Positions 2,436 through 6,881 of a stretch of 13,933 nt of DNA are shown piece by piece. The notes beneath the pieces were generated by a model, which worked only from the letters and a program-made list of their open reading frames with translations, had not been told where the DNA came from and made no database searches. The stretch comes from a virus: UHGV virus genome UHGV-0092352, one strand, 5' to 3'. Position 1 is the stretch's first letter, and each line of letters begins with the position of its first letter. Made by a program: the position numbers and the translations under genes.

Positions 2436-2478
2436 AGGGCCATCAGTAAAGAGCTGGTGGCCCTTTTGTTGTTGTGAG
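2436..2478 (+). terminator. Rho-independent terminator-like hairpin immediately upstream of the holin gene
   Basis: 11-bp stem (2436-2446 AGGGCCATCAG / 2454-2464 CTGGTGGCCCT, one G-U pair), 7-nt loop, then the T-rich tract TTTGTTGTTGTG. Confidence 0.5.
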
Positions 2479-2501: not shown

Positions 2502-2717
2502 ATGTACCAGATGGAAAAAATCACAACAGGTGTGTCATACACCACGTCAGCGGTGGGAACGGGCTACTGGTTCCTGCAGTTGCTGGACAGGGTTTCCCCG
2601 TCTCAGTGGGCGGCAATAGGCGTGCTGGGGAGTCTGCTGTTTGGGCTGCTGACATATCTGACTAACCTGTATTTCAAAATCAGAGAGGACCGTCGTAAGG
2701 CAGCGCGGGGAGAGTAA
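2502..2717 (+). CDS. S: Pinholin, S21-like class II holin with dual-start motif (holin/antiholin)
   Basis: 71-aa protein [10 protein letters not shown]... with two TM segments ([14 protein letters not shown]; [18 protein letters not shown]) and a charged C-terminus [11 protein letters not shown], closely resembling phage 21 / 933W S as I recall it. Two in-frame starts, ATG 2502 and ATG 2511 (Met1/Met4). GGAG 7 nt upstream of 2502. Confidence 0.85.
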
Positions 2718-2721
2718 GGCG

Positions 2722-3252
2722 ATGAATAAACAATACAAACTGGTTGTTAAAGGGATAAATAATTACCCGGATAAGATTACTGCTACTGTGGCACTGGAAA
2801 TTGGTGGGTATCCGTCACTGTTGTTGCCATATGTGGCGATTAGTCTTGACCGTACTGAAGGTGCCACGCTGGAGTTTTACGAAGCTGAGGCGAAAAAACA
2901 GGCGAAGCAGTTTTTCATGGATATTGCTGCCGCTTTATGTGAAGGGGATGAGCAGTCGCCGGAAAAGCGCCCCATAATTTTAGAGGCGCAGGATGTGTTG
3001 ATAACCTACAGAGGAAAACTACCGGGAATAATTACGGGTTCTCTGAAGACGCCACCGACGGCATTGCGGTCAGAAAACGATGATATTGAATCACGCATTG
3101 AAAAACTGGAGTGCTATATCGCTGAATTGAAAAAAAGCATCCCAACAAAAAATGAGGTGCTTGCAGCAGATGAAATGAAAGAAACTATTCTTGATCGCGC
3201 GGCGCATCTAAGCTGCGCTTCACTGTTGAAAGAGCATCTTCAGCAGCCTTGA
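2722..3252 (+). CDS. Hypothetical protein (176 aa) inserted between holin and endolysin; function unknown
   Basis: ATG 2722 lies 4 nt after the S stop, with GGGAGAG 8 nt upstream (translationally coupled position). GC content is clearly lower than flanking phage genes (about 40% in the first 120 nt by hand count). No motif I recognise; N-terminal beta-like region and C-terminal helical region. Confidence 0.6.
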   Translation: MNKQYKLVVKGINNYPDKITATVALEIGGYPSLLLPYVAISLDRTEGATLEFYEAEAKKQAKQFFMDIAAALCEGDEQSPEKRPIILEAQDVLITYRGKLPGIITGSLKTPPTALRSENDDIESRIEKLECYIAELKKSIPTKNEVLAADEMKETILDRAAHLSCASLLKEHLQQP

Positions 3253-3485
3253 GGAATCTTTTATCATCACGAGCAACTGTCTTTGGTATTTCTTTAATTA
3301 GATGTTCCATTTCGGCGATCAGGTAATCTGACACAGCGTTATTTTTACTTAGTGCATCCATTGCTTTGATTATCTTTGCGAGGCAGCCATCTCGCATTGT
3401 TGAGTTTACGCCAGTGCCCACCACTGGCGGGCTGAAGACTTAACATATCCAGGGATTCGGAACCGATAAATCCTGATAAATATCC

Positions 3486-4019
3486 ATGAACGCAAAAATC
3501 AGATACGGCCTGTCGGCTGCCATTCTGGCGCTGATTACTGCAGGCGCATCTGCGCCTGACATTCTCGACCAGTTTCTGGATGAAAAAGAAGGTAACCACA
3601 CCACAGCATACCGTGATGGTTCTGGTATATGGACCATCTGCCGTGGTGCCACCCGGGTGGATGGTAAGCCTGTCGTCCCCGGCATGAAGTTGTCGAAGGA
3701 AAAATGCGACCAGGTTAACGCCATTGAGCGTGATAAAGCGCTGGCGTGGGTGGAGAAAAACATCAGAGTGCCGCTGACCGAACCCCAGAAAGCGGGGATC
3801 GCGTCATTCTGTCCGTACAACATTGGTCCCGGTAAGTGTTTCCCGTCGACGTTTTATAAACGAATTAATGCAGGCGATCGCAGGGGGGCGTGTGAGGCGA
3901 TTCGCTGGTGGATTAAGGACGGTGGCAGAGACTGCCGTATTCGCTCAAACAACTGTTACGGTCAGGTATCCCGTCGTGACCAGGAGAGCGCGCTGGCGTG
4001 CTGGGGAATCGACAGATAA
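3486..4019 (+). CDS. R: SAR endolysin (T4-lysozyme-like muramidase, GH24) with N-terminal signal-anchor-release domain
   Basis: N-terminus MNAKIRYGLSAAILALITAGASAP is a Gly/Ala-rich SAR helix. Catalytic E-8aa-D-5aa-T spacing is present (EGNHTTAYRD...GSGIWT). Resembles 933W / phage 21 R from memory. No recognisable SD precedes ATG 3486. Confidence 0.9.
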   Translation: MNAKIRYGLSAAILALITAGASAPDILDQFLDEKEGNHTTAYRDGSGIWTICRGATRVDGKPVVPGMKLSKEKCDQVNAIERDKALAWVEKNIRVPLTEPQKAGIASFCPYNIGPGKCFPSTFYKRINAGDRRGACEAIRWWIKDGGRDCRIRSNNCYGQVSRRDQESALACWGIDR

Positions 4020-4109
4020 GCAGAATATTTTGCTGAAAAATGCCGTTGGTCAACGCGGGCGGATAACACGAAGTCCTGTGAACTGGCAAAACCTAAGTGA
4101 ATAAAAGTA

Positions 4110-4150
4110 AAAACCCCGTTTGTTGGCAGCAAGCGGGGTTTTGTGTTTCT
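4110..4150. terminator. Bidirectional intrinsic terminator between R and the downstream small genes
   Basis: Stem AAAACCCCG (4110-4118) / CGGGGTTTT (4134-4142), extendable through inner pairs to about 15 bp. A-rich tract on the left and U-rich tract (GTGTTTCT) on the right, so it looks like a terminator in both orientations. Confidence 0.6.
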
Positions 4151-4175
4151 GACCTTGGATAAGGCAAGGGAGAAC

Positions 4176-4358
4176 ATGGAAAAGTATAAACGAATTCTGT
4201 TGAGGTTGACTATGAAAAACGGCCTTGAACTGAAAGCGCCTGTAACTGATGACATCAGCAGAGCACTGGCTTTTGCCATTAAGTGGGTGGCGGTCGGTGT
4301 TGCTGTGTCCCCGATGCTGTATGGGCTGGCAAAACTGGTCATTGCGTTGAAATCGTGA
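4176..4358 (+). CDS. Small hypothetical membrane protein (60 aa, C-terminal TM helix)
   Basis: ATG 4176 (MEKYKRILLRL...) preceded by AAGGGAG. C-terminal hydrophobic segment AFAIKWVAVGVAVSPMLYGLAKLVIAL. The listed ORF start at 4143 (GTG) is less likely. Confidence 0.4.
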   Translation: MEKYKRILLRLTMKNGLELKAPVTDDISRALAFAIKWVAVGVAVSPMLYGLAKLVIALKS

Positions 4359-4372
4359 AGGGAGGATTAAGC

Positions 4373-4504
4373 ATGTCAGACAAACTCATAACGCTGGCGA
4401 AGATCCTCTGTGTAATTGTCGGCATTTCATTTTCACTAATGCTGGTTGCCATTTTCTTTTCCACCGCCTGGCGAGTCCTGACGTTATCGGGACTGGTGGG
4501 GTGA
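4373..4504 (+). CDS. Small hypothetical membrane protein (43 aa, single TM helix)
   Basis: Strong SD GAAGGGAGGA 5 nt before ATG 4373. [33 protein letters not shown]... is a single TM helix. Stop TGA at 4502-4504, 7 nt before the Rz start. Confidence 0.5.
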
Positions 4505-4511
4505 AAGAGAG

Positions 4512-4979
4512 ATGAGCCGTGTTCTGTGTGTGGTGATTATTGTCCTGGCGGGTGGCTGTGGTGCGCTGTGGCTGGCAACAGACCATTACCGCGATAACGC
4601 CATCACCTACAAAGCGCAGCGCGATAAAAAAGCCAGAGAGCTGGAGCTGGCAAACGCCACCATTACTGATATGCAGGTGCGCCAGCGCGATGTTGCTGCG
4701 CTCGATGCAAAATACTCGAGGGAATTAGCCGATGCGAGAGCTGAAAATGAAACTCTGCGTGCTGATGTTGCCGCTGGTCGTAAGCGCCTGCGGATCAACG
4801 CCACCTGCTCCGGTACCGTGCGTGAAGCCACCGGCACCTCCGGCATGGATAATGCAACCGGCCCCCGACTGGCAGACACCGCTGAACGGGATTATTTCAC
4901 CCTCAGAGAGCGGTTGATGACAATGCAGAAGCAACTGGAAGGGGCGCAGGACTATATCCGCACTCAGTGTATTAACTAG
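4512..4979 (+). CDS. Rz: i-spanin Rz (inner-membrane spanin subunit)
   Basis: 155 aa with N-terminal TM ([19 protein letters not shown]) and a coiled-coil periplasmic domain. SD GAAAGAGAG upstream. Typical position after the endolysin; Rz1 is embedded in the +1 frame. Confidence 0.85.
4732..4917 (+). CDS. Rz1: o-spanin Rz1 (outer-membrane lipoprotein, nested within Rz)
   Basis: [20 protein letters not shown] has a lipobox (VSAC) followed by a proline-rich mature region ([36 protein letters not shown]), very similar to lambda Rz1 as I recall it. Entirely inside Rz in a different frame. Confidence 0.8.
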
Positions 4980-5002: not shown

Positions 5003-5227
5003 ATGAAGAAATTACTGGTAACCGTAAAGCCTTTTCAGGGAACAATTCCGTTCCGTATTTTGCAGCGTGGTCGTGTTCTTGTTGAAGGTTCGTTCAGTGG
5101 TAAATGTACGCAATTACACTCCCGGACCTTTCAGGTGAATGCCACGAATGAAGAGCTAACCGTTGAGTGTACGATGAATGCCGCTAAATGCCGCATGGTA
5201 TCCGCTGCATTACAGCCAGTGTGTTGA
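5003..5227 (+). CDS. Hypothetical small protein (74 aa), function unknown
   Basis: ATG 5003 with GGAG 5 nt upstream (MKKLLVTVKPFQGTIPFRILQRG...). No signal peptide or lipobox, so not obviously Bor-like. Confidence 0.45.
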   Translation: MKKLLVTVKPFQGTIPFRILQRGRVLVEGSFSGKCTQLHSRTFQVNATNEELTVECTMNAAKCRMVSAALQPVC

Positions 5228-5425
5228 GCGACCTTATTATCCATGCGCGGTATTGTCGCCGTATTCCTGCATTAACAGAGACCGCAGCCCGACAGGGAGA
5301 CTCCTCTGCGAGAGTGTGCGGGGATAATCAAAAACGATACACACCGGGGTTTACCGCGTTAACGGAGCGCGGCGTTGTCCCCTCATAGTCGCCTGTCCGG
5401 TGCGATGGTGGAAGAAACCGAACGT

Positions 5426-5626
5426 TCATTTCTCGTTATTTTTCATGCTGGCCGGGCGCAGATGCGTTGCATCTGTTGCCAGCCTTCTCCTGCAGGCTTC
5501 AATAACCCACGCTGAAAAGTTACCGGATCCTTTATGCTCAAGGGCGATGTTGATCTGTTCAATCATGTGATTGGGGAAACGGATATTGCGGGTTGTGGTT
5601 CTGCGGGTCCGGTTTTTCGATGACAT
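5426..5626 (-). CDS. YlcI/YnfO-family (DUF3950-like) small prophage protein; putative ribbon-helix-helix-like DNA binder
   Basis: Minus-strand ORF. Best start is ATG at 5626 (MSSKNRTRRTTTRNIRFPNHMIEQINIALEHKGSGNFSAWVIEACRRRL...) with AGGAA SD (TAAAGGAAATAAAT ATG). The same family and position (between lysis genes and terminase) occur in E. coli DLP12/Qin prophages, from memory. Confidence 0.7.
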   Translation of the reverse strand: MSSKNRTRRTTTRNIRFPNHMIEQINIALEHKGSGNFSAWVIEACRRRLATDATHLRPASMKNNEK

Positions 5627-6323: not shown

Positions 6324-6881
6324 GTGCTGACAACGCAAAAACGAAAATTTGCGCTGGCGCTCATGTCCGGGAAAAACAAAACAGCGTCAGCCATTGCCGC
6401 CGGTTATTCGGCGAAGACCGCCAGGGTTAAAGGCTCGCAGCTGGCAAAAGATCCGGAGGTGCTCGCGTTTATAGCCCGTAAACAGTGCGAAACGGTGGAG
6501 GTGGATGAGGTTCCTGTTTACCGGCAGAAAAAATCAGAGCAGGAGGATAAACCCCGTCGCCGTGAGGCGGCTGCAATACCACAGCCGGACGAAAACAATC
6601 CGGAGATGCCACCGTCCGCGGTGATGTCTCCTGGTATTGAATATATGGAGGATGGTCTTCCCGATCCGGTGAAAGCCATGGGGCGGATCCTGGTGGAAAA
6701 CCTCTGCATTGATCCGAAACTGGCACTGGATGCGGCCTGGCGTCTGGCGCAGTTCACGCACCATAAAAAAGGGGATACCGGGAAAAAATCGGCAAAAGGT
6801 GATGCCGCGAAAAAAGCGGCTAACCGTTTTGCGGTGCCACCCCGACTGGTGGTGAATAACGATAATGAGGGCAACGGATGA
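6324..6881 (+). CDS. terS: Terminase small subunit (P27-family-like)
   Basis: GTG start at 6324 with GGAGGAG just upstream (in-frame stop at 6258). N-terminal HTH-like region KRKFALALMSGKNKTASAIAAGYSAKTA. Stop overlaps the large-terminase start (ATGA). Confidence 0.75.
   Translation: MLTTQKRKFALALMSGKNKTASAIAAGYSAKTARVKGSQLAKDPEVLAFIARKQCETVEVDEVPVYRQKKSEQEDKPRRREAAAIPQPDENNPEMPPSAVMSPGIEYMEDGLPDPVKAMGRILVENLCIDPKLALDAAWRLAQFTHHKKGDTGKKSAKGDAAKKAANRFAVPPRLVVNNDNEGNG

Follow-up and report, generated by a model that had tools for sequence, protein, structure and literature searches.

Two small conserved genes and a terminator-like hairpin between the endolysin and spanin genes of a lambdoid Escherichia coli prophage

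Introduction

Lysis by phages of Gram-negative bacteria is usually told as the work of a holin, an endolysin and a spanin, although the releasin of phage Mu and Lcc6 of LambdaSo show that extra players may be hidden from this account. Here we describe an interval of 492 nucleotides (nt) between the endolysin gene R and the spanin gene Rz in the UHGV virus genome UHGV-0092352, the whole 13,933-nt stretch of which is hereafter called the window. This interval carries a terminator-like hairpin and two short open reading frames (ORFs), ORF1 (60 amino acids, aa) and ORF2 (43 aa), which prove to be genuine genes with helical, hydrophobic products and which belong to two different evolutionary units.

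The closest positional counterpart is the LysA protein of phage P2, a membrane protein whose gene, as Ziermann et al. 1994 and reviews from the Young laboratory are said to describe, lies between the endolysin gene K and lysB/lysC. LysA is reportedly non-essential, and its loss is said to shift lysis timing in an antiholin-like manner. ORF1 and ORF2 occupy the same slot, from the endolysin gene to the Rz-equivalent. LysA, however, has about 140 aa and about four predicted transmembrane (TM) segments, and the P2 cassette, with its canonical holin and soluble endolysin, is unlike the one in which ORF1 and ORF2 are found; neither Pfam nor PHROGs links LysA to either protein.

Two further precedents come from phages whose endolysin is of the signal-anchor-release (SAR) type. 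Mu gp25, the releasin (DUF2730), is a small inner-membrane protein with a single transmembrane domain (TMD) that aids release of the SAR domain and is harmless alone (PMC9239132). Its gene lies within a few genes of that for the SAR endolysin, and ORF1 and ORF2 are likewise small and close to a SAR endolysin gene. In contrast, gp25 has 99 aa, an N-out/C-in topology and an acidic cytoplasmic domain of 73 aa, and it replaces the holin, whereas ORF1 and ORF2 coexist with a pinholin and have no comparable soluble domain. Lcc6 of the lambda-like Shewanella phage LambdaSo, a 65-aa single-TMD protein, is needed together with pinholin, SAR endolysin and Rz/Rz1 and is placed at the pinholin step (bioRxiv 10.1101/2024.01.23.576932). 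It can be likened to ORF1 and ORF2 by description, not by sequence: the gene for Lcc6 lies near xis, at a distance from the lysis genes, and the protein has an N-terminal TMD followed by a 43-aa cytoplasmic tail and is essential, whereas ORF1 and ORF2 are dispensable in related cassettes. Mu gp25 and Lcc6 together set a precedent for the control of SAR-endolysin/pinholin lysis by small membrane proteins that share no family resemblance with one another.

A different comparison is offered by the lambdoid morons, small accessory genes found between late-operon genes at recombination-tolerant sites, with intrinsic terminators (PMC4104026). ORF1 and ORF2 resemble these in being small accessory genes of the late operon at a recombination-tolerant, terminator-associated site. 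The moron of Juhala et al. 2000 is said to have its own sigma-70 promoter upstream and a factor-independent terminator downstream; here, in contrast, no promoter motif was detected, and the terminator stands upstream. ORF1 and ORF2 come closest, in their position and presumed logic, to P2 LysA and the small lysis helpers, from which they differ in size, topology and sequence.

Results

The window corresponds to the late region of an E. coli prophage of lambdoid type; its gene order is S, a DUF1327/YdfR gene, R, the interval, and Rz/Rz1. The features of the interval are as follows.

4020-4105, plus strand: R-proximal 3' flank, left edge of the exchangeable segment (alignment of 39 distinct R-Rz intervals)
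4110-4150 (stem 4110-4142), no strand assigned: terminator-like hairpin with a U-rich tail (folding, variant comparison)
4176-4358, plus strand: ORF1, 60 aa (phrog_1115/4493/3246)
4360-4365, plus strand: Shine-Dalgarno sequence GGGAGG of ORF2, 7 nt 5' of its ATG
4373-4504, plus strand: ORF2, 43 aa (phrog_4906, E=2.5e-27)

ORF1 and ORF2 are separated by 14 nt, and the stop codon of ORF2 by 7 nt from the ATG of Rz at 4512. A preliminary description of this DNA, made from its letters alone, had given the same limits for both ORFs, for the end of R (4019) and for the start of Rz, and had remarked on the strong Shine-Dalgarno sequence and short Rz spacing of ORF2; all of this holds.

Both ORFs are genuine genes that are conserved and under purifying selection. 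Among the 19 intact alleles of ORF1, polymorphic sites are distributed 18/12/39 over the three codon positions, and the pooled ratio of non-synonymous to synonymous substitution rates (dN/dS) is 0.21 in frame as against 1.1 and 2.3 in the other frames. The 25 intact alleles of ORF2 give 18/14/24 polymorphic sites, with a pooled dN/dS of 0.38 in frame as against 0.8 and 1.5. When every distinct variant was counted one time, an excess of synonymous changes was present in the annotated frame only (p=1.7e-5 for ORF1 and p=0.02 for ORF2). It is this coding-like evolution, together with conservation, that sets the two ORFs beyond chance. An ORF in the +1 frame (4249-4350) was rejected as a gene, with dN/dS in that frame of at least 1, and the upstream GTG (4143) and TTG starts that some gene callers choose were rejected because they overlap the tail of the terminator.

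The interval is widespread. A partial match was found in 2113 of 5426 complete E. coli genomes, and in 998 of them the match extends over at least 80% of the interval; many E. coli chromosomes carry the full-length 492-nt interval at 95-98% identity, with two hypothetical proteins recorded there in RefSeq. The protein relatives of ORF1 (121, from Escherichia and Salmonella, with identities as low as about 65%) and of ORF2 (106, nearly all from Escherichia or Shigella) are likewise all labelled hypothetical. ORF2 is present in 276 phage records, mainly those of Shiga toxin (Stx)-converting phages, with length, start and stop kept at 74-100% amino-acid identity; its carriers include BP-4795, Min27, P13374, Sakai Sp5 (ECs_5707) and Sakai Sp10 (ECs_1966), and intact copies are also present in the PhiR12/PhiR5 series, deposited as phage genomes. 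The preliminary description had held that absence of both ORFs from related prophages that keep the surrounding DNA would speak against them; instead, both are kept. The existence of the two ORFs is already on record in the databases as hypothetical proteins, and ORF2 often goes unannotated in Stx-phage records. Many such GenBank entries lack a feature for an intact ORF2 (74-93% identity), among them NC_010237 (Min27), NC_011356 (YYZ-2008) and AJ279086 (phage 7888).

An exhaustive profile search with the ORF1 alignment against 1.84 billion representatives returned 18 clusters (at 50% identity) of 20-87 aa, none of them with a fusion to a known domain. Common to these clusters is a MKNGLE.DAPVT motif followed by a hydrophobic helix, in many cases with a basic M.KYKRILLRLT extension, and the motif and hydrophobic core persist in relatives at about 50% identity or below. 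Across 185,579 GTDB species-representative genomes ORF1 was not found, and ORF2 was found only in one contaminant contig. This 328-bp contig (NZ_JPLE01000251.1), which belongs to a Xanthomonas pisi assembly, has a 93%-identical ORF2 and is almost certainly E. coli or phage contamination. Frameshifted copies were also noted: loci L124 and L111 with six similar loci, L022/L023 and L007 hold a frameshifted ORF2 (with a C-terminus changed to ...RLDDVVFVGDAGVRGI) or frameshifted or truncated copies of ORF1.

We then compared the R-Rz interval across relatives. In the K-12 prophages DLP12 and Qin, R overlaps Rz directly with neither ORF in between, so that the two ORFs are indeed extra relative to such cassettes, as the preliminary description had supposed. 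R also overlaps Rz in lambda and phage 21, which are not known to carry either ORF. A survey of 82 intervals, gathered via ORF2 or via DNA similarity to the interval, revealed several architectures. The window type consists of R, hairpin, ORF1, ORF2 and Rz, with 489-492 nt between R and Rz. In Sakai Sp5, Sp10 and most Stx-converting phages, R is followed by a different hairpin, an antirepressor gene (Ant, 189 aa), ORF2 and Rz, in an interval of about 1 kb. Other intervals harbour three or four consecutive small hydrophobic ORFs, or a single hydrophobic ORF of 32 aa or of 37-50 aa.

The borders between the exchanged and shared parts are sharp. The R stop codon is followed by about 85 nt (4020-4105) that are approximately 90% conserved in all cargo types, even where the hairpin differs, and that could be a functional element of the R 3' untranslated region or merely provide homology for cargo exchange. 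All cargo types diverge from about 4106, and similarity to the Ant type restarts exactly at the ATG of ORF2, 4373, from where the window and the Ant type are about 95% identical as far as the start of Rz, where the compared segment ends. Because the junctions at about 4105 and at 4373 are so sharp, we distinguish two separate evolutionary units: the hairpin and ORF1 (about 4106-4372) constitute exchangeable cargo, and ORF2 is part of the Rz block. This pattern argues against the preliminary proposal that both ORFs and the terminator had been inserted together.

We also considered a further suggestion in that description, that the interval might be the degenerate remnant of an antirepressor gene (Ant/BRO-N), and rejected it: the DNA of ORF1 has no similarity to Ant, and ORF2 is intact downstream of Ant. 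A comparison of 4143-4372 with six Ant-type intervals (blastn-short and tblastx) yielded only a separate ORF1-like copy in one of them (L009).

A sample that was unbiased with respect to the ORFs was drawn as well. It consisted of 80 IMG/VR loci, chosen for having the closest Rz proteins; in 74 of these, R lies upstream within the locus. In none of these 74 does R abut Rz, and in 72 a small hydrophobic ORF stands directly 5' of Rz (ORF2 in 33, a 32-aa ORF in 19 and a short form resembling ORF1 in 20). The remaining two possess ORF2, with a fragmented methylase of about 940 bp between ORF2 and Rz. Comparison of ORF2 with the 32-aa ORF that replaces it (MAEKLSTWKF...) gave an hhalign probability of 1.8%, which does not support homology. 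In IMG/VR loci L021-L024 a fragmented DNA methyltransferase (MKCVLYSGDCLDVMP...DPPYG, about 940 bp) separates ORF2 from Rz, and cargo can thus enter on the Rz side of ORF2 too.

In Salmonella, a homologue of ORF1 (82% identity) stands directly 5' of Rz and downstream of a different SAR endolysin and an unrelated holin of the HP1 type; it is preceded by the same hairpin, whose inner stem carries compensating changes.

The product of ORF2 is the more hydrophobic of the two. Its TM segment (residues 11-29/33) has a mean Kyte-Doolittle value of 2.9 and exceeds the Rz anchor in hydrophobicity, and AlphaFold (AF2) models the protein as a single helix (residues 2-38) with a predicted local distance difference test score (pLDDT) of 89. 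Since Lys4 and Lys10 lie on the N-terminal side and the C-terminal tail of about ten residues is uncharged in most alleles, ORF2 is predicted to adopt an N-in/C-out topology, the same as that of Rz. Its N-terminal half is near-invariant at the protein level and its C-terminal half is variable; the ribosome-binding region of Rz falls within the 3' end of ORF2.

ORF1 comprises a basic N-terminal helix (KYKRILLRL), the conserved motif MKNGLE.DAPVT and a long C-terminal helix of marginal hydrophobicity. AF2 (pLDDT 77) models it with a basic amphipathic helix at residues 2-15 that a short linker joins to a helix of 38 residues (22-59). The preliminary description had assigned a TM helix to each protein. 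This is well borne out for ORF2, whereas the hydrophobic stretch of ORF1 (about residues 30-58) is marginal, with two lysines and a proline (K36, P46 and K53) and a hydrophobicity on a par with R's SAR domain. In frame with M1 lies another start, M13 (4212); it would give a 48-aa product and is the annotated start in some relatives. The extension from M1 to M13 adds 12 strongly basic residues (K3, K5, R6 and R10; charge +4/-1), of the kind that sets topology, and the M1/M13 pair may therefore be said to resemble the logic of dual-start antiholins such as lambda S107/S105 and phage 21 S71/S68. ORF1, however, is not a holin homologue, with no Phage_holin match at E<=1.

The hairpin downstream of R has stem arms AAAACCCCGTTTG-loop-CAAGCGGGGTTTT at 4110-4142, followed by GTGTTTCTG. 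Its folding energy on the plus strand is -21.1 kcal/mol (z=-3.25, equalled by 0 of 200 shuffles), and with a stem of 13-15 bp containing 6 G-C pairs, then UUUUGUGUUUC, the hairpin has the sequence make-up of an intrinsic terminator. The preliminary description had called the hairpin strong and bidirectional. This is confirmed for the plus strand with its U-tract; its minus-strand counterpart is weaker (-14.3 kcal/mol, z=-1.9) and is followed by UUUUUACUUUUAUU, where the A-rich 5' flank supplies a good U-tail, so that bidirectional termination at 4110-4142 is plausible. The hairpin is one of five terminator-like sites in 3.5 kb. In a comparison of eight variants from E. coli and Salmonella, pairing is kept in 99% of cells, and two pairs, both in the inner stem of the single Salmonella sequence, are changed on both sides. 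Ant-type phages have a different but analogous hairpin at the same place after R.

Rfam gave no family at gathering score in the whole window, and by E-value 3900-4600 gave only sub-threshold terminator look-alikes. We rejected an anti-sRNA (small RNA) of the AgvB/AsxR type as an identity for the hairpin; AgvB and AsxR are located upstream of S, at the pR' moron site. In the Hfq-CRAC table for Sakai there is no EcOnc peak in the R-Ant gap of Sp5, where the cargo is of the Ant type and not ORF1.

No plus-strand sigma-70-like promoter rises above background between 3950 and 4560 (best score 7.4, against a median of 7.2 for window tiles), and no terminator was found between ORF2 and Rz. The start codon of ORF1 lies 33 nt from the hairpin stem. 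Intrinsic terminators in the late operons of lambdoid phages are known to be passed by polymerase that comes from pR' and has been modified by Q. Given this behaviour, the lack of a plus-strand promoter and the tight packing with Rz, expression of the two ORFs probably depends on Q-antiterminated late transcription. In such a scheme, ORF1, ORF2 and Rz/Rz1 would share the late expression of S and R and stay silent in the lysogen; there the hairpin would shield them (and, in Stx phages, the antirepressor gene) from stray upstream transcription, while during lytic growth Q-modified RNA polymerase would pass it. The analogous hairpin in Ant-type phages would fit this insulator role, as leaky expression of an antirepressor would be costly in a lysogen.

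On the minus strand, a promoter-like site (TAGTCA-18-TATACT, 4212-4183) lies inside ORF1 and is directed at the hairpin. It is situated in conserved codons and in score reaches only about the 90th percentile of the window background. An RNA from this site would be about 80 nt long and antisense to the ribosome-binding site of ORF1.

The lysis genes that surround the interval were assigned as follows.

2502-2717, plus strand: pinholin S, P21-type (class II), with a Met1/Met4 dual start (PF04971, E=9e-33; MYQMEK...)
3486-4019, plus strand: SAR endolysin R, a lysozyme (PF00959, E=1.4e-24; phrog_7 endolysin; N-terminal MNAKIRYGLSAAILALITAGASA)
4512-4979, plus strand: i-spanin Rz (PF03245, E=3e-50; phrog_13)
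4732-4917, plus strand: o-spanin Rz1, embedded in Rz (ORF with the lipobox LVVSAC)

The N-terminal signal-anchor of R is only weakly hydrophobic.

Family searches with ORF1 and ORF2 gave no function. All of their PHROG matches are of "unknown function", and Pfam, NCBIfam and PADLOC produced only a sub-threshold match of ORF2 to DUF3930 (Pfam E=0.17, 12 bits against a cut-off of 25). At E<=1, neither ORF matches the Phage_holin families, whereas S of the window matches PF04971, and the PADLOC defence models give 0 families for either. Toxin families (Hok, Ldr, Ibs, TisB and others) have no match in Pfam or NCBIfam, and a sequence search of the PDB with both profiles returned nothing meaningful. 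The preliminary description had put forward a lysis regulator (antiholin or lysis-inhibition-like), a small membrane toxin or an exclusion factor as possible roles; holin, antiholin, releasin, toxin and defence families all failed to match either ORF.

Three familiar identities were considered and rejected. As spanins, ORF2 lacks a periplasmic domain and its KILC is no lipobox, ORF1 has neither, and a genuine Rz/Rz1 pair follows. As Mu-type releasins, neither matches DUF2730, ORF2 has about ten residues on each side of its TMD, and the soluble part of ORF1 is N-terminal and basic. As morons, they have no sigma-70 promoter of their own, and a terminator stands upstream of ORF1 with none between ORF2 and Rz.

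In the searchable literature, no paper was found that names ECs_1966, ECs_5707, the RefSeq accessions or the PHROG id. A comparative paper on Stx phages does not discuss ORFs between R and Rz, the Sakai Ribo-seq supplements contain no entry at the expected coordinates, and lysis genes go unmentioned in a preprint on the microproteome of Enterobacteriaceae. Within the literature searched, we found no earlier description of the conserved slot in front of Rz or of the sharp modular junctions.

Discussion

How might these two proteins function? Our tentative preference, held with less than even confidence, is that ORF1 and ORF2 are non-essential inner-membrane accessory factors of the pinholin/SAR-endolysin/spanin pathway. 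ORF2 would insert N-in/C-out beside the i-spanin and the pinholin, ORF1 would be a basic helix that is tail-anchored or marginally embedded in the membrane, and through contacts between TM helices they might tune lysis timing, pinholin triggering or release of the SAR domain. Four lines of evidence lead us to this reading: the ORFs are probably expressed late along with the lysis genes; members of this Rz clade almost without exception have a small hydrophobic ORF directly 5' of them; ORF1 recurs in a second cassette with a SAR endolysin, where the holin is unrelated; and P2 LysA (in the same slot), Mu gp25 and LambdaSo Lcc6 provide precedents.

A number of findings weigh against a role as lysis accessory factors. 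No holin, antiholin, releasin or other lysis family was matched in Pfam, NCBIfam, PHROGs, PADLOC or the PDB. Selection on ORF2 is only moderately supported (p=0.02), and linkage to Rz could account for part of its conservation. Some prophages carry frameshifted alleles of ORF1 or ORF2, consistent with the decay in some prophages that is expected of accessory genes. Since cassettes in which R overlaps Rz manage without them, the two are not essential. The R-Rz interval is a general hot spot for cargo, which includes antirepressors and a fragmented methylase, so position alone is no proof of a role in lysis. Finally, distant relatives of ORF1, some of them tandem paralogues, lie after tail-fibre genes in Salmonella prophages, just behind a terminator and beside genes with no lysis signature, and such relatives outside lysis cassettes weaken a purely lysis-specific reading of ORF1.

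These last observations are also what would be expected if the ORFs were late-operon cargo unrelated to lysis, that is, small membrane proteins kept in recombination-tolerant slots for some other benefit, such as superinfection exclusion or an injection block, protection of membrane or receptors in the dying cell, or lysogenic conversion via leak-through at the terminator. The exclusion morons cor and HK97 gp15 sit at the same tail-fibre end where ORF1 relatives, tandem paralogues included, follow a terminator beside non-lysis genes. The interval itself behaves as a swappable slot (for Ant, the fragmented methylase and various small ORFs), with exchange junctions at about 4105 and exactly 4373, and the genes are dispensable in related cassettes (DLP12 and Qin). 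Against this stand the lack of classic moron anatomy (no promoter of their own, no downstream terminator), the absence of any PADLOC or defence match and, for ORF2, a position almost always within 7 nt of Rz across differing upstream cargo, which is unexpected for free-floating cargo. We consider cargo of this kind the main rival to the preferred reading and somewhat less probable than it.

A further reading, which we think improbable but worth stating, is that ORF2, perhaps with its analogues in the same slot, could be an unrecognised single-TMD lysis component that times lysis, with ORF1 as a second, exchangeable regulator whose two starts yield antiholin-like isoforms of opposite topology. 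Since most Stx-converting phages carry ORF2, it would then affect when and how much Shiga toxin is set free. On that reading the partner of ORF2 would be the i-spanin or the pinholin, and the analogues would be the 32-aa and ORF1-like ORFs that stand before Rz in other loci.

Less probable again is that the proteins have little or no function, with ORF2 serving to deliver ribosomes to Rz after cargo had parted R from Rz, and ORF1 a slowly decaying filler. The tight spacing of ORF2 and Rz, the location of the Rz ribosome-binding region within the end of ORF2, the frameshifted alleles of both ORFs at some loci, the variable C-terminal half of ORF2 and its modest selection signal would all be in keeping with this. 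However, dN/dS is well under 1 in frame only, strongly so for ORF1; ORF2 keeps its length, start and stop across the 276 phage records at 74-100% amino-acid identity, with an N-terminal half that is almost invariant; and the motif and hydrophobic core of ORF1 are kept at about 50% identity or less.

A type I toxin-antitoxin-like arrangement, in which ORF1 (or ORF2) would depolarise the membrane and a minus-strand RNA ending at the hairpin would mask the ribosome-binding site of ORF1, is very improbable: the size and hydrophobicity of the products match, and the promoter-like site at 4212-4183 faces a hairpin with a good minus-strand U-tail, but that site scores only at about the 90th percentile and lies in conserved codons, there is no plus-strand promoter for a toxin mRNA and no toxin-family (Pfam/NCBIfam) or Rfam match, and no Hfq-bound sRNA peak is seen in the Sakai Sp5 R-Ant gap, although Sp5 and Sp10 carry Ant cargo and not ORF1.

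Returning to the preferred reading of ORF1 and ORF2 as accessory factors in lysis, its significance would lie in the reach of the ORF2 family, which is found directly 5' of Rz in hundreds of Stx-converting phage genomes and in roughly one-fifth to two-fifths of complete E. coli genomes. If ORF2 does alter lysis timing, it would bear directly on the release of Shiga toxin and on the fitness of prophages. Even with no effect on timing, the locus would still constitute a cargo slot, defined by recombination, within an essential gene cluster and with a terminator as putative insulator.

Other features of the window

S and R are separated as well, by an insertion made up of a gene of the DUF1327/YdfR family that encodes 176 aa (2722-3252, plus strand) and an overlapping minus-strand ORF of 79 aa (3185-3424), and the lysis cassette is thus broken up at two places. 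The minus-strand ORF matches phrog_18136, to which no function is assigned there. About 40 nt 5' of the holin gene, a second strong terminator-like hairpin (2436-2464, plus strand) has a 12-bp stem with 7 G-C pairs, then TTTGTTGTTG.

Downstream of Rz, a plus-strand ORF of 74 aa (5003-5227) matches only positions 100-172 of the 291-position phrog_2571 (unknown function) and may be a fragment of a larger gene; genes for an HNH endonuclease and for terminase lie farther downstream of Rz/Rz1. EcOnc11, a strong Hfq-bound peak (Tree et al. 2014), corresponds to the 3' terminator-proximal region of a minus-strand YlcI/YnfO-like gene downstream of Rz. In Sakai Sp10 (locus L178) it lies at about 6445-6510 on the minus strand; the counterpart in the window, 5419-5471, has been replaced, with only the flanks in common.

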